This document shows, piece after piece, positions 21,066 through 44,954 of a stretch of 64,000 bases of DNA; within the stretch, counting starts at the first letter, position 1; every line of letters starts with the position of its first letter. The notes below the pieces were generated by a model. The model did no database searches and had not been told where the DNA came from. It was given only the letters and a program-made list of their open reading frames with translations. Source of the DNA: Candidatus Uhrbacteria bacterium (GTDB taxonomy: Bacteria > Patescibacteriota > Patescibacteriia > 2-12-FULL-60-25); the NCBI GenBank assembly GCA_021413945.1, contig JAIOPK010000006.1:390327-454326 (forward strand), in the 5' to 3' direction. The position numbers and the translations under genes are program-made.

Positions 21066-21953
21066 TCATTTACGCAAACGTGACGAGGTGCGAGACCAGA
21101 ATTGTCCGCCAAGTTGAGCCACATATCCTTTCATTTCGAGAAGCGAGAGGTGGGCGCTTGTCGTCGCCGCATCGAGGCCGGCTTGGGTGGAGAGATCGTC
21201 GACGTGGATATGGCCCGTAATGAGGCCGAGGATCGTGCTTTCCTCCGCTGTCAGCGGCATTGATGCGCGGACTTGCGAGACCAATTCCGGTCGATCGAGC
21301 TGTAATACGTCAAGCACGTCCGTCGCATTCGTACAGACTTTTGCGCCGAGCGTAAGCAGGCGATTCGACCCTTGTGAAACCTCGGACCAGATGGAACCGG
21401 GCACGGCTAGCACTTCGCGATTGTCGTCGAGGGCAAGTTTTGCCGTGATGAGCGAGCCGCTTCCGATGCTGGCTTCGACGACGATTGTCGCAGGCGTCCA
21501 GCCGGCGATCAGGCGATTGCGTCTCGGGAACACGTGTTTAAATGAACCGGAACCCGGAGGAAACTCGGAAACGAGTGCGCCTCCGCTTTCCAGGATGTCA
21601 TGGGCGAGCTTGAGATGTTCGCGAGGGTAAATCGTCGCTTCGTCAATTCCGGTTCCGAGAATGGCAACCGTGTAGCCTCCCGCTTCGAGCGCGGCTTTAT
21701 GTGCTTCTCCGTCGATACCGAGCGCGAGTCCGGAGACGACGCCGAGACCTGCGACGACGAGATCGGCTACGATTTCATGCGTGGCTCGCCGGCCATACGG
21801 CGTACATCGGCGCGTGCCGACGATCGAGACGCATGGCGTATCTTGCAGGTTGCCTCGAACATACAATCCTTTTGGCGGATCGCTGATTTGGCGAAGCAGC
21901 GGCGGATAGCGCGCGTCGTCGATGGGAATGAATTCGATGGAATCAGGAAGCAC
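21066..21953 (-). CDS. dprA: DNA-processing protein DprA (Smf)
   Basis: Rossmann-like core (VSIVGTRRCTPYGRRAT...GLALGIDGEAHKAAL) and a C-terminal winged helix. Confidence 0.85.
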   Translation of the reverse strand: MLPDSIEFIPIDDARYPPLLRQISDPPKGLYVRGNLQDTPCVSIVGTRRCTPYGRRATHEIVADLVVAGLGVVSGLALGIDGEAHKAALEAGGYTVAILGTGIDEATIYPREHLKLAHDILESGGALVSEFPPGSGSFKHVFPRRNRLIAGWTPATIVVEASIGSGSLITAKLALDDNREVLAVPGSIWSEVSQGSNRLLTLGAKVCTNATDVLDVLQLDRPELVSQVRASMPLTAEESTILGLITGHIHVDDLSTQAGLDAATTSAHLSLLEMKGYVAQLGGQFWSRTSSRLRK

Positions 21954-26211: not shown

Positions 26212-26357
26212 GTCGTGTGGGAAGCGAAATCGTTTTCAAGGTTAGCATAAATCGATGACGCTAGCAATGCGCGGAACGACGTGAATAGCTGGGGGTAAGT
26301 ACGCCCAGACGCTCCATGTTCTTAGCTAACTGCTCTATGTTATACTGTCTCCGAGTT

Positions 26358-29318
26358 ATGCCTTTGCGTTCATTCGCGAGTTGGAAGAACCTGTTTGTTG
26401 TTTGTGCTGTCGCACTTTTTTCGACTGTTGGTATTCTAAACTTTGGACAAACGACATATGCTGCAGGCCCAAATGAATCCTGCAACCAGGATACGGATTG
26501 TACTGCTGGCGCGTGTGCAGTGGCAGGAGATTGTGAATGTACCGGAGAGATAGAGACGCTAGGTACTCCTGGTCTGTGCCAGGGCACAACTGCGGGGATT
26601 GCGCGAGCAAGGGCAGCAGACAGTGCAGCGGCAGCAGCATCCGCCGACTCTTGCGGACCGCCTGGAAATTTCGGCACCTATATCTGTCAGGGCGTCACGA
26701 TGGTGTTAGGTTGGATCGTTACACTGCTTGGTTGGATCGTTTCATTGATTCTGACCGTCCTTCTAGCGTTTGCAAAATATAATAGCTTTTCAAGTGCGGC
26801 ACCTGTGGAAGTTGGTTGGCCGATCGTGAGAGACATTTGCAACATGTTTTTCATTGTCATTCTTCTTATTTCTGCATTTTCGACCATCATCGACTACGGA
26901 GGAGGAGAACTTCATTACACCAAGGTTTTACCGCGACTACTCATGATGGCGGTACTGATCAATTTTTCCAAAACGTTGATTCAGCTTCTGATCGACTTCT
27001 CGCAGGTTGTGATGCTGACGTTCGTGAATGCCTTTGCTTCCGCGGCTCAGGGAAATTTTGTGAATGCTCTTGGCTTGGCGCGGATCATGCAATTGTCAGC
27101 CGATGCGCCTGCGGGTGCTGCTAACGGGACAAACATTATCATCGCCTACATGCTGGCGATTTTTATGCTGGGTATCATGATTTCCGTCGTTACGATCATG
27201 ACAGGATTCCTTATTTTCCGCATTGTCGGTTTGTGGATCGCGTTAATCATGTCGCCATTGGCATTTTTTGTAACGGCGATTCCCGGCAAGCTATCTAAAC
27301 ATTTAGGAAGTATCGCGAACGACTATTGGTCGCGATTAGGAACATTGCTGACGGGAGGTCCGGTGATGGCATTCTTTTTGTGGCTGACGCTGGCGGTCGT
27401 GCAGGGAGCTAATTCGGGCGGTGGCGGGCTTGCCTCAGCATTATCTTTTGATGTTCCAGAAGGAGCGGCAACTTTTATTACTTCTATCGGTGACGCGCAG
27501 TCCATCGCTTCCTTCATCGTCGGCATCACTTTGCTCATGATGGGGTTGGATCAGGCGGTGAAGTCGGCGAGTGCCATTAGTAAGACGCTTGGAGGTTTTG
27601 CGGAGAAGGCAAAGGGAGCAGGTATGTCGCTTGGACGATTGGGTGCTACGGCTCCGTTTTTGGCTGCGGGGTATGGGGCGGCTTATGGAGCAAGAGGCGC
27701 GGCCCGCTATGCCGACAAGCGTTTGGATCTCACGCGTAAGGTTTCTGCAGCGGGTTTGCAGACATTGGGTCGAGTTCCCGTTGTCGGTTCAGCTTTGCGT
27801 CCGACCTTAGCCAAAGGTTTGACAATGCGGCGTGATGAAGCGGCAAAGCAGGCGAAGGAAGCGGCAGACTTGATGGCGGGTGTCGGCAAAACTGGTACCG
27901 ATGCGGAGCTACGAATGGTTGGCAAGACGTTTGGTATGGGTACGAGCGCGTTCCGTACACTTGGAGCTCGCGCAGGATCGGCGAAGGTTGCCGAAATTCT
28001 TTCTTCCGATGATTTGCGTGACCGTGAAGCAAAACGTAACAAGACCGCATTTATCGATGATATAAAAAAGAGGAATCCCGGGATCTCAGAAGACGAGGCC
28101 AAGGCGGGCTCGGACGTCATGTCTAAGGAGGCGGCAAATCGCGAGCAAGCTAAGTATGTTCGCTCACAATTAGCTCTTGCAAAAACAGCGGGAGACACAG
28201 GTAAGGTAGAGTCACTTGAGAAGTATATGAAGACCAATCCGCATTTGGCGGATCCGGAAGCACCGTATATTGGCAAGGATGGTAAGCCTGTCGAAGGAAA
28301 AAATGGTAGAGACAAATATATCGAGGACTTGGCTACAGATCCGGATCTGTACAAGGAAGTCGGCAAGCTTGATGCGATGAATGGCGAGGTTGCCACGGGC
28401 TTCATGTTGAAGCATGGCTGGGCGGAGGTTGATAAAGAACGCAAAGATGCCGATGGCAATGTTATTAAGTACAAATCGCTGGAGCAGAAGGACAAGGCGG
28501 CATGGGATCGTGTTAAAGGATCAGTGCAAAAGTCAGGTAACAAGGATCTGCTCAATGGCTTGAACGCCCATGAGGGGCTCGTTACGGAATCGCCGACGAC
28601 GGATTATCGCGATCTGAAGAAGGTACAGCATCGCTTCAATGCGGGAGATGGCATGACTCATGCATATAGCGTCGATCCCGCGGCCGTTCCGGGGAAGGGC
28701 GGGGCGCGTATCCGTAATGAAGGCGAGCGTGAATCGATTTCTAAGCTTCAGGAAGCCGCCAAACAGGGTGCGGGCTATACGGTTCCTGTGGAAGCAGCAC
28801 GAACCGCCTTGCGTTCCGGAGCTTCGTTCGCGGAGGTTGCAAAGATTACGGAAAGCGGCAAGGACAACGTTTCATCCATTGTCGATTCTGTCGTGAAAGA
28901 ATCAGTCGGCCAGGCTGCGCAGACAACCAACGAAGCAGACTTTAACGATGAGATCAAGAACATGAACAGTGTTTTCCGACAGATCGACGCGCAAGGCGTT
29001 ACGTCGGACCACCAGATAAAAATTGTTCACGCGGCTCTTACCGGTGGAATCGGTCAACTACTATCAAAGGAAAATTATCCCAGGATTGCAAGCGACCAGC
29101 GTGCGCATGTCGTTAAATTACTCGCCGTTGCAAAACAGCGCGTTAATGATCTGAAACAGCAAGACATAAGCAAGATGAAAGCGGAGGATCAAAAGATTGC
29201 CAAGGAGATTATCGACTCGATGGCCGCGCTTGAACGCGAGGCCGCCAAGAACAAGGACAGCAATATTCCTAGCGGAGCTGTCAAACAGATTTTGAGAAAG
29301 GACGTAGTTGTCGAGTAA
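26358..29318 (+). CDS. large polytopic membrane protein, VirB6/TrbL-like candidate of the T4SS-like cluster
   Basis: Signal peptide, a Cys-rich module (CNQDTDCTAGACAVAGDCECTG), about 7-8 TM helices and a ~550-aa hydrophilic Lys/Asp-rich C-terminal region. Its position is upstream of the PrgI/VirB4 genes. The VirB6-like call rests on topology and context only. Confidence 0.5.
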   Translation: MPLRSFASWKNLFVVCAVALFSTVGILNFGQTTYAAGPNESCNQDTDCTAGACAVAGDCECTGEIETLGTPGLCQGTTAGIARARAADSAAAAASADSCGPPGNFGTYICQGVTMVLGWIVTLLGWIVSLILTVLLAFAKYNSFSSAAPVEVGWPIVRDICNMFFIVILLISAFSTIIDYGGGELHYTKVLPRLLMMAVLINFSKTLIQLLIDFSQVVMLTFVNAFASAAQGNFVNALGLARIMQLSADAPAGAANGTNIIIAYMLAIFMLGIMISVVTIMTGFLIFRIVGLWIALIMSPLAFFVTAIPGKLSKHLGSIANDYWSRLGTLLTGGPVMAFFLWLTLAVVQGANSGGGGLASALSFDVPEGAATFITSIGDAQSIASFIVGITLLMMGLDQAVKSASAISKTLGGFAEKAKGAGMSLGRLGATAPFLAAGYGAAYGARGAARYADKRLDLTRKVSAAGLQTLGRVPVVGSALRPTLAKGLTMRRDEAAKQAKEAADLMAGVGKTGTDAELRMVGKTFGMGTSAFRTLGARAGSAKVAEILSSDDLRDREAKRNKTAFIDDIKKRNPGISEDEAKAGSDVMSKEAANREQAKYVRSQLALAKTAGDTGKVESLEKYMKTNPHLADPEAPYIGKDGKPVEGKNGRDKYIEDLATDPDLYKEVGKLDAMNGEVATGFMLKHGWAEVDKERKDADGNVIKYKSLEQKDKAAWDRVKGSVQKSGNKDLLNGLNAHEGLVTESPTTDYRDLKKVQHRFNAGDGMTHAYSVDPAAVPGKGGARIRNEGERESISKLQEAAKQGAGYTVPVEAARTALRSGASFAEVAKITESGKDNVSSIVDSVVKESVGQAAQTTNEADFNDEIKNMNSVFRQIDAQGVTSDHQIKIVHAALTGGIGQLLSKENYPRIASDQRAHVVKLLAVAKQRVNDLKQQDISKMKAEDQKIAKEIIDSMAALEREAAKNKDSNIPSGAVKQILRKDVVVE

Positions 29319-29324
29319 AGGCCT

Positions 29325-30899
29325 ATGACACGCGATGAATGGCTGAAAGGCTTCAATGCCGCTCCTGAAGCCGTTCAGGATTATTTGCTGGACCCTGTTT
29401 CCGGAACACAGGAGGACACGGCTCAGACGAAGCTCGCCTACGATAACGACGCATGGGATCGTGTCATGGATGTTGTTTGGGAATTACTGTTCAAGCGTTT
29501 GACTCGCTCGGAATTCGAGTTGAAGTGTCAAGCGATTGCGGGGAATCGGAAGCCGCAGGATGTGGAACGCGCGCTATTACAATGGCTCATTTTACCGTTA
29601 GCCGATCTCGTAACCTGGGATGTCGAGGGGCGTTTGCATGAGCTCGGCGTACCGTTGGCAGATGTACAGGGGTCGGTGCGCGTTTCTTTACGGCCCGTAT
29701 CTTATGGCGCAGCTGTCAGACGTATCGCCTCCACGGCGAAGATTAGTTTGCTGAACGAAGATATCGTTCGGAAAGTACGAGATGTCATGGTCTCCAATAT
29801 CAAGGGAGTGCGGTCAAAAGACCAAGTTATCGAAATCTTACAGCGTTCCCAATCGGAAGGAGGATTAGGGTTTGCCGCACAACAGGCACAAGCATTTTTT
29901 ACGGAGATGGAGAAGTTTTTGGCATCGACTCAAGTCTTGTCGGAACAGGAGTATGCGGAGTGGTATCGGAATTTTCAGCAGCAGGGGGACGAACAAGCGG
30001 AAGCCGCAAGCAAGAAGGCGGCGGTCGCAAGCGACGAGGTAACGGGGGCGGGGATGCCGAGGGCAGCGGCGGCCATTGATCCTGTGCTCGAAGCTGCTAT
30101 TGATGGTGCGATCACCCAGATTGGTGATTTGAAGTTGGATGAATATACGGCAAAACGCTTGCGAAATGTGGTGTCGACACGTTTGCGCGACGTCAGAAAT
30201 GCCCAGCAGACAAGGGCAATGTTGGAACGTGAGACGCATGTGGGAGGCGTCGGACTTGCGCCGGAAATTGCCGACAAAGTCGCGGGGATTATTGAGTCGA
30301 CGTACACAGCACAACACGCATCCATCGATGAGGAGCAACGCAAGATGATCGAGAGTACGCAGGATGAACAACGCAAAAAAATTGATGAACGGAAACAGCG
30401 GGAAAGCGAGGAACATGCCGCTTGGTATAAGCAGAAGGTTGCCGGCGCAAAAGGGGATACGGCCGTCGAGCAATTGCGCGCGGCCATGCAGGGGAAGCCG
30501 CTGCCTATTGAGGCGAGCGGAGAGCAGCGCGCGGCTCCGAAACCGTCGATGGTCGACATTGTGCCCCCGATGAGGCTTTCCGGACTTGGCGATGAGTTGA
30601 AATCGATGGATATTGAAACATTCCGCAGACAGGCTAAGACGCCGGAACAGGCTGCAGAGAAGATTTATCAAAAACTCGAAACGCTGAAGCGCGAGAACTT
30701 TGAACGCTGGACGGATGGCGTTACCGCATGGAGATCGTCGCCTCTTCAGCAACAATATTTGAAATTGGTTACGGAAAGCTTTGCCTCGGCGAAACCGGTA
30801 GCACAGCTTGTTGAAGAAAAGCGAAAAATCGACCCAAATTTACCCACAGCCGAGGAGTTAGGAGCGATCATTGCGCTCAATGCACGTATTCAGTTTTAG
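29325..30899 (+). CDS. hypothetical coiled-coil protein (T4SS-cluster associated)
   Basis: 524-aa ORF separated from the preceding gene by a 6-nt gap. Helical with Gln/Glu-rich segments. No family recognised. Confidence 0.55.
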   Translation: MTRDEWLKGFNAAPEAVQDYLLDPVSGTQEDTAQTKLAYDNDAWDRVMDVVWELLFKRLTRSEFELKCQAIAGNRKPQDVERALLQWLILPLADLVTWDVEGRLHELGVPLADVQGSVRVSLRPVSYGAAVRRIASTAKISLLNEDIVRKVRDVMVSNIKGVRSKDQVIEILQRSQSEGGLGFAAQQAQAFFTEMEKFLASTQVLSEQEYAEWYRNFQQQGDEQAEAASKKAAVASDEVTGAGMPRAAAAIDPVLEAAIDGAITQIGDLKLDEYTAKRLRNVVSTRLRDVRNAQQTRAMLERETHVGGVGLAPEIADKVAGIIESTYTAQHASIDEEQRKMIESTQDEQRKKIDERKQRESEEHAAWYKQKVAGAKGDTAVEQLRAAMQGKPLPIEASGEQRAAPKPSMVDIVPPMRLSGLGDELKSMDIETFRRQAKTPEQAAEKIYQKLETLKRENFERWTDGVTAWRSSPLQQQYLKLVTESFASAKPVAQLVEEKRKIDPNLPTAEELGAIIALNARIQF

Positions 30900-30900
30900 C

Positions 30901-30995
30901 CTGTCATCCCAGCGAACGCTGGGATCCAGCTGAGTAAATCGACAGCTTTATAACCTTTCATCCAAGCTGGATTCCTGCCTTCGCAGGAATGACAG
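30901..30995. repeat. 95-bp nested-palindrome (MITE-like) element
   Basis: The left arm CTGTCATCCCAGCGAACGCTGGGATCCAGCT and the reverse complement of the right arm CTGTCATTCCTGCGAAGGCAGGAATCCAGCT are imperfect terminal inverted repeats. Each arm is itself a hairpin, and the differences between arms are compensatory. Confidence 0.6.
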
Positions 30996-31017
30996 TGATT
31001 ATGCTATACTAAGGCAA

Positions 31018-31464
31018 ATGCCAGAGAAATTCGTTGTACCCCAATTCATTGATAACGAAGATAAAATTCTTGGCCCGATTACGGTCAGACAGTTCTTGTT
31101 GTCGCTGGGTGGTACCTTTGCTCTTTTTCTTGAATACAAGATCTTCCAGCTGCCGATTTTTATCGTCCTGGCGATTCTTACGGCCGCTTTCGTCGGCGTG
31201 TTTGGATTCTTGAAAATCAACGGACAGCCGTTTCACTTGTTTTTCGTCAACGTATTGCAGACCATGATGCGTCCGCGATTGCGCGTTTGGCACAAAGATC
31301 TCAATGACGCTGAACTAAGGGTTTTGGCCATCAAGCCGCCTGATATCAAGGATCTAAAATCGGCCGTTGTAGCCAAGAGCCGGCCGGAGTCCACACGACT
31401 GCGTGATTTAGCCCTCACGGTAAACACGGGAGGGGTGTACAATCCTGACGAGGAACCGACCTGA
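31018..31464 (+). CDS. PrgI-family (VirB3-like) small membrane protein
   Basis: The N-terminus VPQFIDNEDKILGPITVRQFLLSLGG followed by two TM helices is the characteristic PrgI-family pattern of Gram-positive conjugation systems. It lies upstream of virB4. Confidence 0.7.
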   Translation: MPEKFVVPQFIDNEDKILGPITVRQFLLSLGGTFALFLEYKIFQLPIFIVLAILTAAFVGVFGFLKINGQPFHLFFVNVLQTMMRPRLRVWHKDLNDAELRVLAIKPPDIKDLKSAVVAKSRPESTRLRDLALTVNTGGVYNPDEEPT

Positions 31465-31465
31465 T

Positions 31466-32152
31466 ATGCAGAGCAAACAACTTTCGGGACCCAAACCTGG
31501 CGTTCCTTCACAGAGATTCCTCGACGTTGCGGAAATACGCGACGATATTGTGATTATGCGCGACGGAACCTTGCGCTCCGTGCTTTTGGTTTCCAGCATT
31601 AACTTTTCTTTGAAATCGGTGGATGAACAGAATGCGATCGTGCAGGCGTACATGCAGTTTTTGAACGGGTTGGATTATCCGATCCAAGTTGTGATCCAGT
31701 CGCGCCGCATGAATATCGACAATTACATGCGTCAGCTTGATGAAAGCGAGAAAACGCTGACCAGCGATCTCTTGAAGCGCCAGATTCACGATTATAAAGA
31801 TTTCGTCGTCCAGCTCGTCAAGCTTGGCGACATCATGCAGAAACGTTTTTATGTGGTTGTCCCGCTTAACCCGGCGACGGATAAAGGCACGGTGCAAAAA
31901 GGATTTACCCAGCGTTTGTCGGAGATCTTTTCTCCAACCATCGTCGGAAAGCTGACGGAAGAACGTTTTCAGAAGTTACAGTTTGATTTGAGTCTGCGTG
32001 TCAACCAGATCATCGGCGGGCTCTCGAGTATGTCGCTTAACGCGGTGGCCCTCGACACCCAGAGCTTGATTGAAATGCTGTACACCGTTTACAACCCGGA
32101 GCTGTTTGAGACACAGCGCATGACGGATATCTCCAAGCTGCAACTCGAATAA
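31466..32152 (+). CDS. hypothetical T4SS-associated protein
   Basis: 228-aa ORF separated from the PrgI-like gene by a 1-nt gap (31464/31466). FLDVAEIRDDIVIMRDGTLRSVLLVSSINFSLKS...IVQAYMQFLN resembles the N-terminal region of long VirB4/TraC ATPases. That resemblance is my impression and is not verified. Confidence 0.5.
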   Translation: MQSKQLSGPKPGVPSQRFLDVAEIRDDIVIMRDGTLRSVLLVSSINFSLKSVDEQNAIVQAYMQFLNGLDYPIQVVIQSRRMNIDNYMRQLDESEKTLTSDLLKRQIHDYKDFVVQLVKLGDIMQKRFYVVVPLNPATDKGTVQKGFTQRLSEIFSPTIVGKLTEERFQKLQFDLSLRVNQIIGGLSSMSLNAVALDTQSLIEMLYTVYNPELFETQRMTDISKLQLE

Positions 32153-32155
32153 TAT

Positions 32156-34054
32156 ATGGCCTTTACCCCGGAACAAAAACCAGCGTTTGACCCTTCGCTT
32201 ATCACGAAGGGGGGGGTTGGATTCCAGAAAGGTCCTACCAAGGAAGAAGCGAAGCTTCAATCGCAAGAGCAAAAGATTGCGCTTGAGGAAGAACGCATTT
32301 ATCGAAAGGGCGTCGCGTCGATCAAGGACTTGATCGCACCAGCCTCGATGGTCGTGGAACCGTCGTTTGTCAGACTGGGCGACGTGTATTGCCGTACGCT
32401 GTTTGTCGTCACATACCCTCGCTATGTCACCGTCGGTTGGGCCTCGCCGATTATCAACCTGTCCGCACAGCTCGATATCGCGATGTTTTTCTATCCGATC
32501 AAAGCCGATGTCGTTCTGAAACAGCTGAAGCGCAAGGTTGGTGTTCTCGAGGCACAGATTTCGTCGGACGCAGAGTCCGGAAAACCTCGCGATCCGATTA
32601 ACGAGACGGCTTTGCGCGATATCGAGCAGTTGCGCGATGACTTGACGCAGGGCATCGAACACTTTTTCCAATTCGCATTTTACTGCACGTTCTACTCGAA
32701 AGATAAGGACGAGCTAGAGCGCGTAACATCGAGCGTTGAAAGCACATTCGCCGCGATGTTGATATATACGCGCCGCTCCTATTTCCAAGCGGAGCAGGGT
32801 TTCAACTCGACATTGCCTGTCGGCAACGACGAATTGCAGATTACGTTTAACATGAGCACGTCGCCGATTGCGTCGTCGTTTCCGTTTACATCAGCCGAGC
32901 TGACGAGCGATAACGGAATTTTGTACGGAGTAAATCGACATAACAACTCGCTGATCATTTTCGATCGATTCTCATTGCAGAATGCGAACGCTGTCGTGTT
33001 TGCCACTTCCGGTGCGGGAAAATCGTATGCTGTTAAGCTTGAGATTATTCGTTCACTCATGTTGGGCGTCGATGTCATCGTTATCGATCCGGAATCGGAA
33101 TATAAGCATTTGTCGGATGCGGTCGGAGGAACGTATATCAATATTTCGCTGGCTTCTCGTTCGAAGATCAATCCGTTCGACTTGCCGCGACCGGCAGGGG
33201 AGGCGTTTTCCGTCGAGGACATCATTCGAAGCGCCGTTATTACGATTAAGGGTTTGCTTCGATTGATGCTTGGCAAGATCACGACGGCGGAAGACTCGAT
33301 TCTCGACCGTGCGTTGCTCGAAACATACGCGAAGAAAGATATTATGCCGGGAGCGGATCTTGCAACTGTTGAGGTTCCTATTTTGCAGGATTTTCAGAGC
33401 ATTCTCGAAGGTATGGAGGGGACGGCCGAACTGATCGTGAAACTTAAGAAGTTTACGGAGGGTACATTCTCCGGATTGCTCAACTCGCCGACAACGGTGC
33501 AGATGAACAACCAGCTCGTGGTGTTCTCGGTTCGCGATTTGGAAGACGAATTGCGCGCGATGTCGATCTATACGATTATCAACTACATCTGGAATGTCGT
33601 TCGTTCGGAACGCAAGAAGCGTATTCTGATTATCGACGAGGCATGGTGGCTGATGCAGTCGGAAGACTCGGCTAAGTTCGTCTTTGCACTCGTGAAGCGC
33701 TGCCGTAAGTATTTCCTCGGCATCTCGACGATTACGCAGGATGTGAACGACTTCTTGACCTCGCCGTATGGTCAGGCGATTGTAACGAACAGCTCGATGC
33801 AGTTGCTGATGAAGCAGTCGCCGGCGGCTATCGACCTGATTGCACGCACATTTTTGCTCACGCAGTCGGAAAAGTATTTGCTGCTCGAGTCCGGTGTGGG
33901 AGAAGGGATCTTCTTTGCAGGATCAAAACATGCCGCCATCCAAATCGTGGCTTCGTATACGGAGGACCAGATCGTTACGACCAATCCGCAGCAGCTGCTC
34001 AAGATTGAGGCGGCTAAGAAAGAGTTTGAAGAATCACAAAATCCAGCCGCCTAA
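32156..34054 (+). CDS. virB4: VirB4-family T4SS ATPase
   Basis: Walker A (FATSGAGKSYAVK), Walker B (RILIIDEAWWLM) and an N-terminal domain pattern (YCRTLFVVTYPRYVTVGWASPII) typical of Gram-positive VirB4/PrgJ/TraE-like proteins. Confidence 0.85.
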   Translation: MAFTPEQKPAFDPSLITKGGVGFQKGPTKEEAKLQSQEQKIALEEERIYRKGVASIKDLIAPASMVVEPSFVRLGDVYCRTLFVVTYPRYVTVGWASPIINLSAQLDIAMFFYPIKADVVLKQLKRKVGVLEAQISSDAESGKPRDPINETALRDIEQLRDDLTQGIEHFFQFAFYCTFYSKDKDELERVTSSVESTFAAMLIYTRRSYFQAEQGFNSTLPVGNDELQITFNMSTSPIASSFPFTSAELTSDNGILYGVNRHNNSLIIFDRFSLQNANAVVFATSGAGKSYAVKLEIIRSLMLGVDVIVIDPESEYKHLSDAVGGTYINISLASRSKINPFDLPRPAGEAFSVEDIIRSAVITIKGLLRLMLGKITTAEDSILDRALLETYAKKDIMPGADLATVEVPILQDFQSILEGMEGTAELIVKLKKFTEGTFSGLLNSPTTVQMNNQLVVFSVRDLEDELRAMSIYTIINYIWNVVRSERKKRILIIDEAWWLMQSEDSAKFVFALVKRCRKYFLGISTITQDVNDFLTSPYGQAIVTNSSMQLLMKQSPAAIDLIARTFLLTQSEKYLLLESGVGEGIFFAGSKHAAIQIVASYTEDQIVTTNPQQLLKIEAAKKEFEESQNPAA

Positions 34055-34064
34055 CCTTTGATCT

Positions 34065-34685
34065 ATGAGAAATCGCATCCTGCTCATCCTGCTTGTCCTT
34101 GCCGCCATCATTGGCATTGGGGCCGTTGTCTGGTTCATCTTACGACCGGCTTTGCCGGGAAACCTTTCTCCACAGCCGCCGGCATCGACACAAAATCCGT
34201 CGGACAAGCCGTTTAACCCGACGCCGGCTTTGCCACAGCCCACGACATCGACAGGGGTAGATGCTAATTCGCCCGCAGAACGCGAACGTCAGGCTCAAGA
34301 AGTCTTGAAGCGTGCGTCGCTTGATATGGCGGCACGCTTGAACACGTATTCCAATGCCGATGGATATGACGCATTACGCGTCATCCAGGCAAGCGTTGAT
34401 CCCGTGCTTGCCGCGAAGCTTGAGACGACACGCTTGACCCTGCGCCGCGATCACCCGAGTTTTGGAGCTTCATGGGGCCAGACCGTTCAAGCTCTTTCCG
34501 CCGTCATCAACAGCCCTCCGCCGATTCTATCGGCCACACAAGCTTCCGTAACCGTACAGGCGCAGACGACGGTCGAGAGTGCGGGTAAAGCAAATGTGGT
34601 CAGCCAAAATAGAATTGATCTGACATTGAAACGCAATGGAAACACTTGGCTCGTCTTCGACATGGTTATCAGCGCTGGCGAGTAA
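34065..34685 (+). CDS. bitopic membrane protein, possible VirB8-like component
   Basis: N-terminal TM helix, a Pro/Thr-rich linker and a ~130-aa alpha+beta C-terminal domain, immediately after virB4. The VirB8-like idea rests on architecture and context only. Confidence 0.45.
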   Translation: MRNRILLILLVLAAIIGIGAVVWFILRPALPGNLSPQPPASTQNPSDKPFNPTPALPQPTTSTGVDANSPAERERQAQEVLKRASLDMAARLNTYSNADGYDALRVIQASVDPVLAAKLETTRLTLRRDHPSFGASWGQTVQALSAVINSPPPILSATQASVTVQAQTTVESAGKANVVSQNRIDLTLKRNGNTWLVFDMVISAGE

Positions 34686-35307
34686 TACCCTCGACAGCCT
34701 GTTCCCGCCCGCTTGTATCGGTTGTGGTACAAGCGGGTTTTGGTGCTGCGATGATTGTTTCCAATCGATTGATTTTGACGTTGAAGCGCCTAAGATCGAC
34801 CATGTCGACAGAACTTGGATTATCGGATCCTATGCTCATCCCTTTCTACGAAAACTTCTAACGAGCTATAAGTATCGTTCAGCGACATGTCTGGAACCGA
34901 TCTTAAGGCGCTTGCTTGTTCGATGGGAGCATTCGACCGGCGCGAGATTCGATGGCGAGTGGACGATTGTCGCAACGCCCACGGATGAAAAACACGTGCT
35001 CGAGAGAGGATTCGACCATACGGAACGTTTGGCGGAGATCGTCAGGGAATGCCTGCTACCGGCCGCCAAGGTCGAAAGGATGTTACGACGCAATCGAAAA
35101 ACAGAAGCGAATGCGAATTTGCATGATCCGGATATGCGAAAGGGGAATCTTCGGGGCTCCATTGAAGTGATCAAACCGGTGCGAGGGAATATCCTTTTGG
35201 TTGATGATGTGGTGACAAGCGGAGCAACAATGGGGGAATGCGCAAAAGTAATCCGGCATGCCGGAGCGGACAGGATCGAGGGGATGGCGTTTGCGCTGGG
35301 CGGCTAA
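34636..35307 (+). CDS. comFC: ComF-family phosphoribosyltransferase (ComFC)
   Basis: N-terminal Cys4 zinc finger (CIGCG...CCDDC) and a PRTase motif (LLVDDVVTSGAT). The exact start is uncertain, as the track start overlaps the previous gene by 50 nt. Confidence 0.75.
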   Translation: METLGSSSTWLSALASNTLDSLFPPACIGCGTSGFWCCDDCFQSIDFDVEAPKIDHVDRTWIIGSYAHPFLRKLLTSYKYRSATCLEPILRRLLVRWEHSTGARFDGEWTIVATPTDEKHVLERGFDHTERLAEIVRECLLPAAKVERMLRRNRKTEANANLHDPDMRKGNLRGSIEVIKPVRGNILLVDDVVTSGATMGECAKVIRHAGADRIEGMAFALGG

Positions 35308-35568: not shown

Positions 35569-36417
35569 TTATTTCTCCTTACGCGTATCCATGTATTTTT
35601 TAGCAACTTTGACGGCGATGCTTCCTCCCGGGACAAACATGCCGACAGCATCGGCGCCGACGTCAAAGAGAAAGTTTTGGTCGAGGATTTTGCCCATGTA
35701 TTCTTTAAAGACACGGCTGCCTGTGCGAATTTCTCCGGTTAGGCCATCGACTTCCAAGATCGCTTCCTTTTGCTTAGAAGCCCATGCGTATTTGAAGGCG
35801 TAGACGGGACGATAATAGAGATCAACGCGCGCGACTTCTACTTCCTCTGCCAGAATCGTGTCGGCGTGGATTCCTTTGATCATTTTAGCGAGGGCATCGC
35901 GCATGATGGCAGAAACACGAGCTTGTGGAGGGACAAAAATCGCGCCTTCCTCGACCTCGTCTTTTAACAGACCCGTCACTTCAAACGGCGCCATCGAAAG
36001 ATATTTTTGAAGTTCTGCGGAAGGCTTGGCTGTGATTCCATCGACAATTAAATCTTCATGCTCTTCTTGAAAACAATGCTCTTGGACAGGGATGTGGATG
36101 TGATCATTCTGGACCTCGTACTTTACATCGTGGACCGTAACCGTTTTGACTTCTTTGCCGCTCGTTTCGACTTGATAGTTGGCGGAACGGATGTATTCGT
36201 AACGTGCATTGGCCACGACATGCCAAAAAGGCTCATAGCGATGCTCGCTATAAACGAGGGTGAAGTCTTCATCCTTTGGTTTGCTTAATAGGCTGGTGAC
36301 TTTACTGAACGCATCAAAAGCGGTCACCTTTTTCTGCCAAGCGCGTTCCTTGGCGATCTCCGGTGTTACCTGGTCTTTCAGAAGGAGAATTCTTTGGGTC
36401 GCGATGTTGATTTCCAT
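35569..36417 (-). CDS. hypothetical protein
   Basis: Start chosen at ATG 36417 (MEINIATQ). No family recognised. Confidence 0.55.
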   Translation of the reverse strand: MEINIATQRILLLKDQVTPEIAKERAWQKKVTAFDAFSKVTSLLSKPKDEDFTLVYSEHRYEPFWHVVANARYEYIRSANYQVETSGKEVKTVTVHDVKYEVQNDHIHIPVQEHCFQEEHEDLIVDGITAKPSAELQKYLSMAPFEVTGLLKDEVEEGAIFVPPQARVSAIMRDALAKMIKGIHADTILAEEVEVARVDLYYRPVYAFKYAWASKQKEAILEVDGLTGEIRTGSRVFKEYMGKILDQNFLFDVGADAVGMFVPGGSIAVKVAKKYMDTRKEK

Positions 36418-36486
36418 AGACGTAGTGGAGAGTATCACGGAAAGCGGTAATTTCCGCAAAAGCGACCCTTGCGGGTCGCTTTTGTA

Positions 36487-38305: not shown

Positions 38306-40390
38306 ATGGAGATCATGTTGCATTGGGAAGAACCCGTCTCTTTTGTGAAAGGGGCGACGGCACCGGTCCGTAAGGCTTGGGAGAGTTTGGGTATCCGAAC
38401 TATTGGAGATCTGTTACTGACACTGCCACGAAGATACGACGACTTTTCTCGGATTACGAAGATCGCGGAAGCGCAGAATGGGGACTTTGTAACGCTCGAA
38501 GGGACTGTTGTGAAGTGCATCAAGCTAAACTCATTCCGAAAACGCTTTGCCATCTTTCGGCTGATGTTTGAAGACGAGACTGGGAAGCTGAATGCGAACT
38601 TTTTTAATCAGCCTTGGGTACTTGAGGAATTCAAACCGGGACGGAAGATTTTCTTGTCCGGTAAAATTGCGATCAAGGCTCCATATGGAAAGACGCTCGT
38701 GAGTCCGATTTGGGAACCGGCGGAAGCTCGGACGCTGGCCGCGGGGAAAGTTGCACCGGTTTATGGATTGGCGGGGACGTTGATACAGAAGACGTATCGG
38801 CGATTGATGCAGTATGTTCTCGAGAATGTTGAGTGGCCGGAAGATGCGGTCGCTGCCGGTGAGCTCGAACGGATGAAGCTGCTGCCGTTGCAGGAAGCGA
38901 TCCGTGCCGTTCATGAACCGAATTCGAGCAACCATGCGGAGCAGGGGCGAAGGCGGCTCGCATTCGACGAAGTTCTTGGATATCAATTGGCACTTGGAGC
39001 CGAACGGAAGCGATCGACGGAAGCTGGAGCGCCGGCGATACCATTCGACCAGAACTTCGCGAAGAAATTTGTCGAAAGTTTGCCGTATCCGTTGACGGGT
39101 GATCAGAAGAAATCGGTTTGGGCGGCGTTGCAGGATATGGAGCGCGATCAGCCGATGCGACGATTGATTCAGGGCGACGTAGGCTCCGGAAAGACTGTCG
39201 TCGCGGCTTTCTTGGCGGCGCATGTGCATCGACATGGATATTCTGTCGCACTGCTTGCACCGACGGATATTCTTGCGAGACAGCATGCGATTACGTTCCA
39301 ACGATTATTTGCGATGCACAATATTCCGTTTGCGTTGGTGACTCGAACGGATAAGCGGCTGTATCAAGGTCGCGAAGAAGAAGTCCTGAAAAACGAGCAG
39401 GTCGAATCGCTAGCCGCGCAGGGGAATGTGGTGCTCGTCGGAACGCATGCGCTGCTTGAGAATGGAAGATTGCCGAAAGATTTGGCGCTCGCGATTGTGG
39501 ACGAACAGCATCGATTTGGCGTTGGTCAGCGCGAGGCTTTATTGCTCGGATCGAGAGATGACGGCCATGTTCCGCATCTCTTATCGATGACGGCGACGCC
39601 GATTCCTCGAACATTGGCGTTGACGTTGTATGGAGATTTGGACATTTCGCTCATCGTCGAAAAGCCCGCTGGTCGATTACCGATAACGACGAAGGTTTGT
39701 CATGGAGAACAACGCGAGAAAGCCTATCAAGCGATTCGTGACGCGATCGGACGCAAAGAGAAAGCGTATATTGTTTGTCCGCTCATCGATCCGTCGGATG
39801 CACTTGGCGTGACATCGGTGACGGAGGAGTGGAAGAGCTTGTCGAAGGGACCGCTTGAAGGGATCAAGTTGGGATTACTGCATGGTCGACTCAAACCGAA
39901 AGAGAAGGAAGAGACGATGGAGGCTTTTAAGAATGGAGATGTCGACGTGCTTATCGCGACCAGCGTAATTGAAGTTGGCGTTGATGTTCCGCAAGCGACG
40001 GTGATTGCGATTGAAGGCGCGGAACGATTTGGGTTGGCACAGTTGCACCAGCTACGCGGCCGCGTCGGACGTTCGACGATGCCGAGCTCATGCTATTTAC
40101 TTACCGACACCGAGGGCCCCGGACTCGAACGATTGATGACGATGGAGCGCGTGCAGGATGGGTTCAGGCTAGCCGAAGAGGATTTGAAATTGCGAGGGAG
40201 CGGACAACTGCTTGGGACACAGCAGAGCGGACATGAGGCGCTCACAATCGCGAGGATTACCGACGGGGATATTATTTCTCAAGCACGCGACGAAGCACGA
40301 CGTATACTCGACACGGATCCGGATTTAACGAAACACCCGCTTTGGAAGCGGGCGGTTGAAGGGATGCGGGATGCGGCTCACTTGGAATAG
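38306..40390 (+). CDS. recG: ATP-dependent DNA helicase RecG
   Basis: Wedge/OB N-domain, helicase motifs (GDVGSGKTVVA, VDEQHRFGV, MTATPIPRT) and a C-terminal TRG-like region. Confidence 0.9.
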   Translation: MEIMLHWEEPVSFVKGATAPVRKAWESLGIRTIGDLLLTLPRRYDDFSRITKIAEAQNGDFVTLEGTVVKCIKLNSFRKRFAIFRLMFEDETGKLNANFFNQPWVLEEFKPGRKIFLSGKIAIKAPYGKTLVSPIWEPAEARTLAAGKVAPVYGLAGTLIQKTYRRLMQYVLENVEWPEDAVAAGELERMKLLPLQEAIRAVHEPNSSNHAEQGRRRLAFDEVLGYQLALGAERKRSTEAGAPAIPFDQNFAKKFVESLPYPLTGDQKKSVWAALQDMERDQPMRRLIQGDVGSGKTVVAAFLAAHVHRHGYSVALLAPTDILARQHAITFQRLFAMHNIPFALVTRTDKRLYQGREEEVLKNEQVESLAAQGNVVLVGTHALLENGRLPKDLALAIVDEQHRFGVGQREALLLGSRDDGHVPHLLSMTATPIPRTLALTLYGDLDISLIVEKPAGRLPITTKVCHGEQREKAYQAIRDAIGRKEKAYIVCPLIDPSDALGVTSVTEEWKSLSKGPLEGIKLGLLHGRLKPKEKEETMEAFKNGDVDVLIATSVIEVGVDVPQATVIAIEGAERFGLAQLHQLRGRVGRSTMPSSCYLLTDTEGPGLERLMTMERVQDGFRLAEEDLKLRGSGQLLGTQQSGHEALTIARITDGDIISQARDEARRILDTDPDLTKHPLWKRAVEGMRDAAHLE

Positions 40391-41694
40391 AGCGCGATCG
40401 CTTCTTTGAGGTGTTTACACTCGGCAGGCGTAATGAATCGAGTGAAGCCGAGTCGTTTTGCTTCCTTGAGGCGCATATCCATGCGAGCGACAGGTCGAAT
40501 TTCACCGGTGAGTCCGATTTCTCCCCAGACGGCGAGGTCATCGGGCAGTGGTTTGTCGAGCTTGGCGGACGCGGCGGCTAGACAGATCGCGAGGTCGACG
40601 GCGGTTTCTTTTGCTTCGATGCCGCCGACGGCGTTAGCAAAGACGTCTTGATCGCCAAAACCGACACCGGCGCGGCGGCCCATGACGGCGAGGAGAAGAC
40701 TAAGTCGATTGAGGTCGATGCCGGAGGCGCGGCGCAGGGGAGTGCCGTAGCCGGCTGGGGTTACGAGGGCTTGGAGTTCGACGAGAATCGGGCGCTGGCC
40801 TTCGAGCAGACACGTTACAACGGTTCCTGGGGCTTGCTTGGGTCGATCTGCGAGAAGTGCAGAGCTCGGGTCTTCTACGACGGAGAGGCCGGACTCGTTC
40901 ATCGAGAGGAGGGCGGAGGCGTCGGTGGTGCCAAAGCGGTGTTTGGTGACGCGCATTAATCGAAACGCGTGACTGCGGTCGCCTTCCATCATGATGACGG
41001 TGTCGACAAGGTGCTCGAGTAGACGCGGTCCGGCGAGGTCGCCTTCTTTGTTGACTTGGCCGACAAGAATCACGGACGCGCCGGATTTTTTTGCGGTTTC
41101 CGCGATCCAACCGGCGCTTGCGCGCACTTGCGACATGTTTCCGGGTTCGCCGGGGACTTCCGGGGCACGCATCGATTGGATCGAATCGACGATGGTGAGA
41201 GCGGGTTTGGTTTCGGCGATCGTCGAGGCGACGATGTCGGCGGAGGTTTCGTCGAGGAACAAAAGAGTCGACGGGAGAGTCGAGGAGAGACGCTTCAAAC
41301 GTAAAGAGACTTGTGAAGGGGATTCTTCGCCGGTGACGTACAGAACGGTTTTTCCTTGAGATGCGACGGAGAGAGCGAGTTGGGCGAGTAATGTCGACTT
41401 GCCGATGCCAGGTTCACCGCCAAGAAGCGTGACCGATCCAGCGACAACGCCACCTGACAAAATTTCGTCCCAGACGGCGAGGCCAGTTTTATTGCGAGGG
41501 ATTTCGCCGGCAGCAGCGAGATCGACAAAGGAGGCGGTTTTACCGGGCTTAGTCGAAGGGCGGGCGGCGAGGGCAGGGGATGTGGATTCTTCTGCAACCG
41601 TTCCCCATTTTCCGCATTCGGAACAGCGCCCGGCCCATTTCTGGTACTGGGCGCCGCAATTGGTGCAAGTAAACAATGTCTGGGGCGCTTTCAT
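40378..41694 (-). CDS. radA: DNA repair protein RadA/Sms
   Basis: N-terminal C4 zinc finger (CTNCGAQ...CSECGKW), Walker A (GEPGIGKST), a KHRFG motif (KNRFG-type) and a Lon-like C-terminal domain. ATG at 41694. Confidence 0.9.
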   Translation of the reverse strand: MKAPQTLFTCTNCGAQYQKWAGRCSECGKWGTVAEESTSPALAARPSTKPGKTASFVDLAAAGEIPRNKTGLAVWDEILSGGVVAGSVTLLGGEPGIGKSTLLAQLALSVASQGKTVLYVTGEESPSQVSLRLKRLSSTLPSTLLFLDETSADIVASTIAETKPALTIVDSIQSMRAPEVPGEPGNMSQVRASAGWIAETAKKSGASVILVGQVNKEGDLAGPRLLEHLVDTVIMMEGDRSHAFRLMRVTKHRFGTTDASALLSMNESGLSVVEDPSSALLADRPKQAPGTVVTCLLEGQRPILVELQALVTPAGYGTPLRRASGIDLNRLSLLLAVMGRRAGVGFGDQDVFANAVGGIEAKETAVDLAICLAAASAKLDKPLPDDLAVWGEIGLTGEIRPVARMDMRLKEAKRLGFTRFITPAECKHLKEAIALYSK

Positions 41695-41696
41695 GA

Positions 41697-43457
41697 CTAA
41701 TAGAAGGAGACGTGTATATGTGAGTTTGTACCGCCGCTGTAATGTCCGCAAACGGCATCCAAACCGACTCCTACCATGCGGTCGGGTGTACCACAGTTTC
41801 CGTCCACGCAATAGGCACCCGTTCGTATGCGGCCTGTGCGTGTCGAACAGCTGATCGTTCCTTCATGCGGTTCCACATTTCCTCCAAAGACATCATCAAA
41901 TACCGCTCGACCGCCGTTTTCCTCCTTATAACGCGGTGCGAGTACGTTTACGGTGTAGCGCTGGACACTTTCATTGTTGACCATGTCGAATGCCTGTCCG
42001 GTCCAGTGACTTGACTGACCATCATCACCGCCGGACAACACGCTTCGTACGCATGCCATGCATTCCTCACGGCCATGAGCCAATGTCGAGCAGTTATTAT
42101 TGCTCTCCGCAGACCGAAAGAACCAAGCACCGTTCGCACAGCGATGGTGTCTTCCGACGATCTTAGCGCTTACCGTTCCGCTAATCGTTCCATTGGTTTT
42201 GGCGATAGCGAGGTCCAGCAAATATCGGCAGATCATCGGGTGAATCGGGACACCGTCGGCCGAGTCGTCAAACGTAGCGGCTCTTCCGGTTGTGATCGCA
42301 TCAAATTGCGCTCTTGTTGGAAGGCTTGGACAACTTGGATCCGACGATCGTGAAAGAAGCTGGCACCATTCGGATCCGCTTGGCCGTTGAATAAATCCGG
42401 TACCGCCCAAGATACCCTCACGATCTTGAGCCTGCTGGAGAACAATCGTCCCATTATCGAGATACTGTCTTAGCTGACCGCACATATCGAGACTTGCCAG
42501 TTCCGTGGGTGCGTACGGTACGCCGGGCTCGTGAGCGGGTCCCATGCCTACTGCTGTGCCGAAATCCACATCGGCTTCACCCGAAGCCCATACGTCTGTT
42601 TCAACAAAAGGAATATTCAAAACTTTTAGGTTTGTTGTTGCCGGATTTACGGTATTTAAAATGGCAAAAGCGGCGAGGGTGATCACCATGCCCATGATGG
42701 CGTCAGTGATGATTTGTTTACCTCTCTGAATACTACCGACACCCGCCGATCCCACGAGATAGAGGAAACCACCGTAAACCACCATGACAATCGCGATAAC
42801 GAGGATGATGCCCGTGAGATATCGATAAACGGAGTTGATGTACTGTGCCAAGAACGACACGACGACGACACCGCCTTCACGCGTCGGTGCCGTTAAACTT
42901 TCCGCGCCCGGGATCGGAACGCCGAGGTTGGGAGTGATTGGAGTGAAGGGAACTTCTGCGGGGGCTTCGGCGGCGGCCGCAGAGTCAGGCACGCCGCTGC
43001 AGGTCATTCCGCTGATCCGGTCGCCGACACATGTCGTTCCGGTATTGCAATCCGCGCTCGTCGTACATCTGCCACCCATCGGCTGTCGGCAGGTTCCGGA
43101 GACACAGGATCGGCCTGAAGGGCATGGGCGTGCATCGTTACACGTCGTTGCCGTGTCGATGCTCCCAATACCTCCCACTGGGACGGCACCGGTTAAATCG
43201 ACGCAAACTTCACGATCATAACCCGTACCCGATGGCGGGAGGCAGGATTGGGTCGTGGGACATTCTGCAGATGCTCCGAATACGTCCGTCGATATGCAGG
43301 GAATGAAACAGAAACGAGAGCCGACGGCTCCCCGACAGATTTGGCCCACGACGGCACAGGAATCGCCGGCCCCACAAGGGCCAACTTGTGCAAGAGCGGG
43401 CAGGGTCGACGAGAGCAGGCCTATGACCCCAATGAACGAGACGATAAGAACGCGCAT
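41697..43457 (-). CDS. secreted Cys-rich / T4SS-pilin-like N-terminal module fused to a LAS-type zinc peptidase-like domain
   Basis: Signal peptide, Cys-rich region (GPCGAGDSCAVVGQICRG...) and a two-TM pilin-like module (YRYLTGIILVIAIVMVVYGGFLYLVGSAGVGSIQRGKQIITDAIMGMVITLAAFAILNTVNP). The C-terminal domain has SSHWTGQAFD (SxHxxGxAxD) and a terminal SHIHVS motif. Confidence 0.6.
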   Translation of the reverse strand: MRVLIVSFIGVIGLLSSTLPALAQVGPCGAGDSCAVVGQICRGAVGSRFCFIPCISTDVFGASAECPTTQSCLPPSGTGYDREVCVDLTGAVPVGGIGSIDTATTCNDARPCPSGRSCVSGTCRQPMGGRCTTSADCNTGTTCVGDRISGMTCSGVPDSAAAAEAPAEVPFTPITPNLGVPIPGAESLTAPTREGGVVVVSFLAQYINSVYRYLTGIILVIAIVMVVYGGFLYLVGSAGVGSIQRGKQIITDAIMGMVITLAAFAILNTVNPATTNLKVLNIPFVETDVWASGEADVDFGTAVGMGPAHEPGVPYAPTELASLDMCGQLRQYLDNGTIVLQQAQDREGILGGTGFIQRPSGSEWCQLLSRSSDPSCPSLPTRAQFDAITTGRAATFDDSADGVPIHPMICRYLLDLAIAKTNGTISGTVSAKIVGRHHRCANGAWFFRSAESNNNCSTLAHGREECMACVRSVLSGGDDGQSSHWTGQAFDMVNNESVQRYTVNVLAPRYKEENGGRAVFDDVFGGNVEPHEGTISCSTRTGRIRTGAYCVDGNCGTPDRMVGVGLDAVCGHYSGGTNSHIHVSFY

Positions 43458-43493
43458 ATGCCGATTTTACCGCAAAAAATCAGTTCCTCCAAC

Positions 43494-44954
43494 CTAGTGA
43501 CAGGCCTCGGTTCCGGCGCGGGCGCGTGAGAAGGAATAAAAACGTGTGCATGATCGATAATCAACTTCACGAGCGGCTCCTTCACCAAGCGGAATTGATG
43601 CCGTTCCGATGGTCCAACTCGGGTTACAGGCGCGAGACGGATGATTGCTCGCAAGTTCAAAGTGCCACCATTCATTTGGAATACGGCAGAAACCCGATTC
43701 TTTCATGGCTTGTTCAAGCAAGAGCTGACATGGAACAAATGCATCGCTTTGATTTCTGGATACGCCTCCACAGTACAAGTCCATCGCCAAACCACGCGCA
43801 TGGCCGGAATAACTCGGCGCGCCGGCTTGCGGGAGCAGCCGATCATACAGCGGCTGGATCTGCGCATCCGAGTACGGAGCGGTTTGCGGCGGGGGAATGA
43901 GCGCCCGCAATGCCGGGTCGGAAAACGACCAAGGGGTCGTGGCGCTATGCGTTGTCACTCCGGGTCGGAGCGGAGCGCCCGTGCCCGTTGTACAGTTGAT
44001 GCGCCCAACACATCGTTTCAGCCAAAGGCGAAGTGAAAGAGCGGGAGATCGGAAGCCTCCGCCGACGATACGCCAGTCAGAGTGACTGCCGCGCAGTTCA
44101 CAAAAACGATTTGCCGCACGACGTAACGGCTCAATCACGGATGGATCGACGGGGGTGTTCAAGTGCACGCAGGTTTCATCGAGCCGTTCCATGGCACTTT
44201 CATCGACCGTGATAAAATCGCCTCCTCCTCCCGACGTACCGGCCGCGATAGCAGGGTCCGCAAGTTCCGCTTCTAGGGATTCCATGTCCTCATCGTTCAT
44301 CGGCTGTACAAAAGCCAACTCCAGCGTTTTTAAATTTACGGTTTGCGGATTAATGATATTCAGGATCGAGTACGCGCCTAAAATAATCAGCATGCCAATG
44401 ATCGCATCCGTAATAATCTTTTTCCCTCTGGCGATTTGCCCGATACCGGCGGATGCACCCAAATAAAGGAAACCGCCGTATACGCACATGACAATGGCGA
44501 TAACGAGAGCGATGGATGAAATATAGCGGTAGATAGCGTTGATATATTCGGCCAAGAACGACACGCGGACAACGCCGTTATCGCGCGTTGGCGCACTTAA
44601 ACTTCCGCCGGGAATCGGTACGCCGAGGACGGGTGTGATCGGGACAAATGGGACTTCCGCGGGAGGCTCAGATCCCGTGCTCGGGGAACCTGATGCGCCG
44701 CCGGCTGCAACAACGCATACTGTTCGATCAAGACCCGAAGGCGTTTCGCACGTTTCCGTTGCCGAACATTCCGTTGCGGAACCTGACGCAGCGGGCGTGC
44801 AGGTTTTATAACAAAGTCGAGACCCAGCGGCCCCGCGACAAATTTGTCCTGCGACAGGACAGGCGTCGCCGCTTCCGCATGGGCCGGTCTGGGCAAAGAC
44901 GGATAACGGAAATACGATCGCCGTGATACAGATCGCGATACGAAGGATCCGCAT
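43494..44954 (-). CDS. secreted Cys-rich / T4SS-pilin-like N-terminal module fused to a VanY/M15-type D-Ala-D-Ala carboxypeptidase-like domain
   Basis: Paralogous N-terminus (GPCGSGDACPVAGQICRG...; YRYISSIALVIAIVMCVYGGFLYLGASAGIGQIARGKKIITDAIIGMLIILGAYSILNIINP). The C-terminus has SGHARGLAMD (SxHxxGxAxD) and EWWHFE (ExxH), both M15 motifs. Confidence 0.65.
   Translation of the reverse strand: MRILRIAICITAIVFPLSVFAQTGPCGSGDACPVAGQICRGAAGSRLCYKTCTPAASGSATECSATETCETPSGLDRTVCVVAAGGASGSPSTGSEPPAEVPFVPITPVLGVPIPGGSLSAPTRDNGVVRVSFLAEYINAIYRYISSIALVIAIVMCVYGGFLYLGASAGIGQIARGKKIITDAIIGMLIILGAYSILNIINPQTVNLKTLELAFVQPMNDEDMESLEAELADPAIAAGTSGGGGDFITVDESAMERLDETCVHLNTPVDPSVIEPLRRAANRFCELRGSHSDWRIVGGGFRSPALSLRLWLKRCVGRINCTTGTGAPLRPGVTTHSATTPWSFSDPALRALIPPPQTAPYSDAQIQPLYDRLLPQAGAPSYSGHARGLAMDLYCGGVSRNQSDAFVPCQLLLEQAMKESGFCRIPNEWWHFELASNHPSRACNPSWTIGTASIPLGEGAAREVDYRSCTRFYSFSRARAGTEACH

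Follow-up and report, generated by a model that had tools for sequence, protein, structure and literature searches.

A 64,000-nucleotide stretch of the Candidatus Uhrbacteria genome GCA_021413945.1 (contig JAIOPK010000006.1, positions 390,327 to 454,326 of the forward strand), referred to here as the window, contains a type IV secretion system (T4SS) operon. Seven co-directional, tightly packed open reading frames (ORFs) of the plus strand occupy positions 26316 to 35307, as read from the ORF list and the sequence. The locus is of the known Patescibacteria T4SS kind and matched the published description of that system on every point tested. The genome is 1.05 Mb in size and 100% complete by marker genes, and each operon gene is present in it once. 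The features of the locus are as follows.

26358-29318, plus strand: VirB6-like extended polytopic membrane protein, 986 aa (ORF open from 26316)
29325-30899, plus strand: acidic cytoplasmic protein, 524 aa, conserved operon member from an unnamed family
30901-30995, no strand: palindromic 95-nt element (hairpin) in the spacer before prgI
31018-31464, plus strand: PrgI family protein, VirB3 equivalent, 148 aa (Pfam PF12666)
31466-32152, plus strand: TrsD-like protein, split-off VirB4 N-terminus, 228 aa (NCBIfam)
32156-34054, plus strand: VirB4 ATPase of the monoderm (MPF-FATA-like) type, 632 aa (NF045971)
34065-34685, plus strand: bitopic VirB8-fold protein, 206 aa (AlphaFold2 model and Foldseek)
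34636-35307, plus strand: comFC, the final operon gene, encoding a zinc ribbon and a phosphoribosyltransferase-like domain
41697-44954, minus strand: two Cys-rich genes with T4SS_pilin domains (PF18895), 586 aa and 486 aa, the 486-aa protein also with Peptidase_M15

The spacers between the operon genes are 1 to 10 nt long, with the single exception of a 118-nt spacer 5' of prgI, and the VirB8-like gene and comFC share 50 nt. The original prediction, made from the sequence of the window, had described a co-directional and tightly packed cluster of six genes. The strand and the packing were as described, but the operon has seven genes when comFC is included. All of the ORFs named in that prediction exist as given.

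The 632-aa protein matched the NCBIfam model NF045971 (VirB4-like CD1110 family) with 349.5 bits, above the cut-off of 325, and its sequence contains the Walker A motif GAGKS and the Walker B motif ILIIDEAWW. It also matched the Pfam families TraG P-loop, AAA_10 and DUF87, and the solved VirB4 C-terminal domain (PDB 4AG5) was matched with an E value of 4.9e-46. This is the only VirB4 in the whole genome. For the synteny comparison, the best 80 species genomes by VirB4 were used, and 74 of their loci were long enough to judge the 3' side. These records are genomes and metagenome-assembled genomes (MAGs) of the candidate phyla radiation, some with titles that are uninformative or evidently mislabelled ("uncultured Gammaproteobacteria", "bacterium"). 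The identity of VirB4 across the 80 genomes was 70 to 93%, indicating that the protein is under strong constraint. Its closest relatives were found in Candidatus Uhrbacteria, Magasanikbacteria and Falkowbacteria, all of the class ABY1, and in further MAGs of Patescibacteria.

The 228-aa protein, for which the original prediction had given no function, was identified from NCBIfam matches and plasmid homologues as a TrsD-like VirB4 N-terminus. It matched the N-terminal positions 13-101 of 752 and 127-233 of 894 in two VirB4 models, and the 632-aa protein spans positions 168-730 and 289-889 of the same two models. Judged by these alignments, the two genes together make up one canonical VirB4. The 228-aa protein also matched TrsD/TraD models, including the NCBIfam model NF041427 (TrsD), and had no match among PDB sequences. 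A TrsD homologue was found in 79 of the 80 related loci, with 45 to 88% identity. On Firmicutes plasmids, TrsD homologues are likewise encoded by separate genes, with PrgI and VirB4 on either side.

In the window, trsD and virB4 are divided by a TAA stop and one codon, and the two genes are in frame. A pseudogene or readthrough origin of this split was rejected. In the relatives, trsD and virB4 are in different frames and the in-frame TAA is not conserved, and together with the separate plasmid genes this indicates that the split is old and that the two genes are a true two-gene arrangement. Four relatives (L020:2320-9761, L021, L024 and L027) carry a block of 5 to 8 kb between trsD and virB4. 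The block of L020 contains ORFs of 245 to 430 aa, in which no Pfam domain was found.

The prgI product scored 39.7 bits against Pfam PF12666 (cut-off, 27), and the N-terminal motif VPQFID..EDKILGP.T.RQF is readable in its sequence. A simple scan detected one hydrophobic stretch, at residues 33-56. PrgI was found in 77 of the 80 related loci.

The first gene of the operon encodes 1000 aa from the first ATG, or 986 aa when counted from the Met at which a signal-like helix begins. This helix is followed by an ectodomain (about 70 aa) that is rich in Cys, a membrane core at about residues 105-445 and a hydrophilic tail of about 500 aa. Six to seven segments of the protein are hydrophobic, and it contains 10 Cys residues. 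Among 51 homologues, 18 residues of the helical membrane core were invariant, and the tail was variable among the relatives. The AlphaFold2 model of the first 520 residues reached a per-residue confidence (pLDDT) of about 90 in the membrane core. When this model was compared with the PDB by Foldseek, the top five matches were all R388 TrwI/VirB6, with an E value of 1e-2 and probabilities of 0.96-1.0, and the alignments of about 280 to 320 columns covered nearly the whole chain. Pfam TrbL was matched neither by the 986-aa protein nor elsewhere in the genome, and a profile search with the 986-aa protein against PDB sequences was negative. The modelling thus gives moderate support for a VirB6-like protein, as far as fold and topology are concerned. 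An "extended VirB6" class of proteins has been described (PMC12857230), and the 986-aa protein fits this class by its fold matches, its topology, its place in the operon and its long hydrophilic tail.

The 206-aa protein has one transmembrane helix (residues 2-26), a Pro-rich linker and an NTF2-like alpha+beta domain (residues 70-204). An alignment was built from the genes in the same slot of 71 related loci. Low-scoring profile matches at model positions 1-70 were disregarded, as they covered the transmembrane helix and the Pro-rich linker alone. The AlphaFold2 model had a mean pLDDT of 93, and the first-ranked Foldseek matches were CagV, VirB8, DotI and TcpC. These results are strong support from structure prediction for a VirB8-like protein with the VirB8 fold. 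A gene for about 190 to 220 aa occupied the slot after virB4 in 72 of the 74 evaluable loci, and in five genomes of other classes a VirB8-like homologue was located directly after virB4. That virB4 is constantly followed by a VirB8-fold gene throughout the ABY1 genomes sampled is an addition of the present analysis. The original prediction had proposed a PrgI-family (VirB3-like) protein and a VirB4 ATPase with Walker motifs, and both were borne out by scores above the curated cut-offs. Its candidate VirB6-like and VirB8-like proteins gained fold support, moderate and strong, respectively.

The second gene encodes a 524-aa protein with an isoelectric point of 5.4 and no transmembrane segment. 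Neither this protein nor ten family members searched against Pfam had a match, and NCBIfam gave none for the protein itself. The best match of its profile in the PDB was a ribosomal protein at the chance level (E value of 0.007), and two feature searches of the ESM Atlas with the protein returned hypothetical proteins only. The gene was found at the same position in 73 of the 80 related loci, and the family profile matched 2,765 representative clusters. When 251 genomes from across the phylum were searched, the profile matched 53, including 11 of the 12 sampled relatives of the same class. In the five genomes of other classes in which a VirB8-like homologue directly follows virB4, a homologue of the 524-aa protein was located 1.3 to 1.6 kb upstream of virB4. 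By position and sequence conservation, this family is a constant but unnamed member of the operon that also appears in other classes, and it too is added by the present analysis. One genome of the same family as the window genome (G146, 100% complete) had no match to the 524-aa profile and a weak match to the VirB8-like profile. The T4SS of this genome may be lost or strongly diverged.

The gene order VirB6-like gene, 524-aa gene, prgI, trsD, virB4, gene for about 200 aa and comFC was kept in about 75 of the 80 species genomes, in a position between core genes, and the cluster was found in all relatives examined. In the window, one flank contains topA, dprA, pth, der and lytR, and the other contains tRNA-Ser, ahpC, recG and radA. 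The lytR-der-pth genes were upstream in 25 to 33 of the 80 loci. The GC content is even across the region, and no direct repeats flanking the cluster were found. No integrase, relaxase or coupling-ATPase domain was detected in the scanned flanking genes, to which the integrase search was confined. On gene order and composition, the cluster is judged to be chromosomal and vertically inherited and not an integrated conjugative element. The original prediction had likewise taken it for a chromosomal apparatus rather than such an element.

No match to the relaxase families PF03432, PF01076, PF08751 and PF02486 of Pfam, the only four families searched, was found genome-wide. Besides one ordinary FtsK, the genome encodes two VirD4-like ATPases, and both genes carry TrwB/TraG domains. 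The first, of 857 aa, is located between dnaX and cysS on the minus strand (C16:45367-47937; L002:9365-11938). The second is a paralogue between secDF and bacA (C20:69189-71573; L107:6929-10438) and is split into ORFs of 453 and 714 aa. The original prediction had reported no relaxase, coupling protein or integrase in view. This was correct for the flanks, and for the four relaxase families searched it also held genome-wide, but the two VirD4-like genes are present on other contigs. Both types recurred in nearly all of the 30 relatives searched, and the 857-aa protein was present in each of 31 relatives, which belong to 13 families.

Eleven T4SS_pilin (PF18895, VirB2-like) domains were found genome-wide, all outside the cluster. 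Six VirB2-like pilin-domain genes are in tandem at C12:12085-15461 (L108). Two of the domains are in the window, at 42651-42848 (C2:432977-433174) and 44352-44552 (C2:434678-434878), within the paralogous 586-aa and 486-aa proteins, whose genes adjoin radA. The pilin Pfam scores of these two proteins were just under the cut-off, and the Peptidase_M15 domain of the 486-aa protein scored 26.1 bits. In both proteins the N-terminus is Cys-rich, similar to that of the VirB6-like protein, and is followed by a pilin-like hairpin. By domain type and proximity, the two genes probably encode accessory components of the T4SS described here. T4SS_pilin domains were also seen inside very large open frames of 652 and 3294 aa at C20:989-3036.

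The phylum-wide survey of Quinonero-Coronel 2025 placed the VirB4 of Patescibacteria in a clade related to MPF-FATA and found TrsD to be the commonest partner of VirB4, together with PrgI and VirB6 (PMC12102498). VirB8 homologues were few in that survey and nearly all from ABY1, and about two type IV coupling protein (T4CP) homologues per genome were located mostly far from virB4. Relaxases were rare in the phylum, with 109 homologues in 103 genomes, and in ABY1 comF, recG and radA were near the T4SS (PMC12102498). The present locus shares with this system the chromosomal location, a monoderm-type VirB4, TrsD, PrgI/VirB3, a VirB6-like protein and a VirB2-like pilin array. There is likewise no relaxase match, the VirD4-like genes are far from virB4, and comF, recG and radA are nearby as described for ABY1.

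The T4SS of Southlakia epibionticum (Saccharibacteria), encoded by SEML1_0006-0019, was shown by transposon sequencing to be essential for epibiotic growth (Wang 2023; PMC10633639). It resembles Gram-positive conjugative systems and includes pilins, and no relaxase or coupling protein is recognisable in it (PMC10633639). In Southlakia, the pilin array and wall hydrolases are inside the cluster, whereas they are outside the cluster in the present genome. A clear VirB8-fold gene follows virB4 here, whereas none was found structurally in Southlakia. Further differences are that comFC is in the operon and the 524-aa unnamed protein is fixed in the present lineage.

Among the MPF-FATA systems of Firmicutes (Trs of pGO1/pSK41, Tra of pIP501, Prg of pCF10 and the CD1110 family of CTn2), the same VirB4 family, a separate TrsD and PrgI are found, and the VirB8-fold protein of the window corresponds to their PrgL, TraM or TcpC. 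The order PrgI-TrsD-VirB4 is the same as on the Geobacillus plasmid pGspE55-1, supporting a monoderm ancestry of the operon. In contrast to these systems, the present one has no relaxase match, an unlinked coupling protein and no mobile-element context. It is fixed in the chromosome with class-level conservation, and it has VirB2-like pilins, which the Gram-positive systems do not have.

We consider it likely that the locus is the core operon of a Patescibacteria-type T4SS that derives from MPF-FATA, has become a fixed, vertically inherited organelle and serves contact-dependent exchange with a host instead of conjugation. PrgI would be the VirB3-type membrane anchor for VirB4. Hexamers of VirB4, together with TrsD, would dock on PrgI and on the VirB6-like and VirB8-like proteins in the single membrane, and the VirB6-like and VirB8-fold proteins would together build the membrane channel. 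The docked VirB4 would then power the assembly of a VirB2-like pilus or channel that spans the single membrane and the wall, and the pilin-peptidase fusions may open the wall. Macromolecules would be exchanged with a host bacterium upon contact, and proteins would be likelier substrates than DNA led by a relaxase. The role in host exchange is assigned by analogy, because the homologous system of Saccharibacteria is essential for epibiotic growth. The original prediction had named the cluster a candidate for host interaction as its own inference. This agrees with the published view of the system but is not new (PMC10633639, PMC12102498).

Several points weigh against this interpretation. The 524-aa protein has no detectable relative of known function in Pfam, NCBIfam, the PDB or the Atlas, and the VirB6 fold match of the 986-aa protein is within the chance range for helical bundles and without sequence-profile support. 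The search of four relaxase families leaves room for MOBC, MOBM, MOBH and unknown relaxases. The lifestyle of ABY1 and the expression, substrate and transport direction of the system are all inferred. Finally, protein secretion explains the linkage of comFC and the nearby dprA, recG and radA no better than a role related to DNA would.

The product of comFC matched the ComF/GntX families with an E value of 1e-18, under the curated cut-offs, and the Pfam families DZR_2 and Pribosyltran weakly. The gene is single copy in the genome. In the related loci it was at most 1.3 kb from the virB4 stop in 73 of the 74 evaluable cases, often overlapping the preceding gene, so that almost all of the sampled ABY1 genomes have comFC joined to the operon. 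This linkage is a further addition of the present analysis. As the original prediction had stated, comFC directly follows the cluster, and dprA (21066-21953), recG (38306-40390) and radA (40378-41811) are nearby, within 13 kb; topA is nearby as well. The co-transcription of comFC in ABY1 would point to co-regulation with the handling of single-stranded DNA.

The ABY1 T4SS might import DNA from the host or the environment, like ComB of Helicobacter or Ced of archaea, and pass the strands to ComFC, DprA and RadA. We regard this as unlikely, and it stays live because comFC is fused to the operon. Patescibacteria of this kind lack nucleotide synthesis (cited in PMC10633639), and this also counts for DNA import. 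Further points in its favour are the absence of a match to the four relaxase families and the same association of DNA-handling genes with the T4SS in other ABY1 genomes (PMC12102498). Similarly to H. pylori ComB, there is no relaxase or coupling protein in the cluster, and ComEC, ComFC and DprA are encoded in the genome; by this analogy, the genetic link of comFC suggests cooperation with the T4SS. However, ComB is a diderm VirB2-B10 system whose genes are not in an operon with comFC. A normal comEC is present elsewhere in the genome, and adjacency of genes may mean co-regulation only. The functions of the com genes and of the T4SS can be told apart in Saccharibacteria: the transformation route shown is type IV pili and ComEC (PMC12857230), and Southlakia needs its T4SS, whereas comEC, comF and dprA are dispensable there (PMC10633639). 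CedB (NF041017), the ATPase of the archaeal importer, was matched only weakly, with 60.3 bits against a cut-off of 700; CedA was not searched.

A more specific form of this idea is that the ABY1 T4SS and ComFC make up one DNA-import unit, which would take DNA possibly from the attached host and deliver the strands to ComFC, DprA and RadA, with the 524-aa protein as an adaptor replacing the relaxase and coupling protein. This is speculative and we hold it to be doubtful. If true, a T4SS of monoderm type would serve to import DNA, and bacteria unable to make nucleotides would have in it a way to acquire nucleotides or genes. The near-universal fusion of comFC to the operon is in any case a concrete and testable link between the T4SS and DNA handling.

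Export of DNA or conjugation with an unrecognised relaxase, in which the two VirD4-like ATPases would feed DNA, chromosomal or other, into the channel as in the Neisseria T4SS, is very improbable. The Neisseria T4SS secretes DNA in a relaxase-dependent manner. The conservation of the VirD4-like genes in all 31 relatives, the conjugative ancestry of the T4SS and the restriction of the relaxase search to four families are consistent with export. The coupling-protein genes, however, are unlinked to the operon and lie among housekeeping genes, and no oriT-like feature was seen. The rarity of relaxases in the phylum argues against export as well, and in Southlakia the T4CP homologue is not essential, whereas the T4SS is (PMC12102498).

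An integrated conjugative element or its decayed remnant, as the homology of the genes to Gram-positive conjugative elements and the two tRNA-Ser genes 1.2 kb downstream of the cluster could suggest, is ruled out for practical purposes by a position and gene order that are the same across dozens of species of several families, by the constraint on VirB4, and by the even GC content, the lack of a relaxase match and the lack of integrase domains and direct repeats in the flanks.

To our knowledge, the Patescibacteria T4SS is the only T4SS that is essential to its bearer. Each well-annotated lineage is of help towards finding its substrate. To the published picture, which is unchanged, the locus adds a seven-gene minimal operon in ABY1, a constant VirB8-fold member that earlier was detected only rarely by sequence, and a large unnamed family of cytoplasmic proteins of about 500 aa that accompanies virB4 in several classes.

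Between comFC and the tRNA-Ser pair, an ORF of 296 aa (35569-36459, minus strand) had no Pfam match. A homologue was found in only 1 of the 80 related loci, indicating that the end of the operon is a variable spot.

A near-perfect hairpin of 95 nt (30901-30995) takes up the 118-nt spacer before prgI; its predicted folding energy is -43.8 kcal/mol, with a z-score of -4.8. In close relatives the spacer at this place is mostly 0 to 30 nt long. An arm of the hairpin, about 30 nt, recurs at about five sites of the genome (C2:550972, C2:555897, C20:47770-47847, C16:95723 and C12:87670). The hairpin is probably a small dispersed palindromic repeat that was inserted before prgI.

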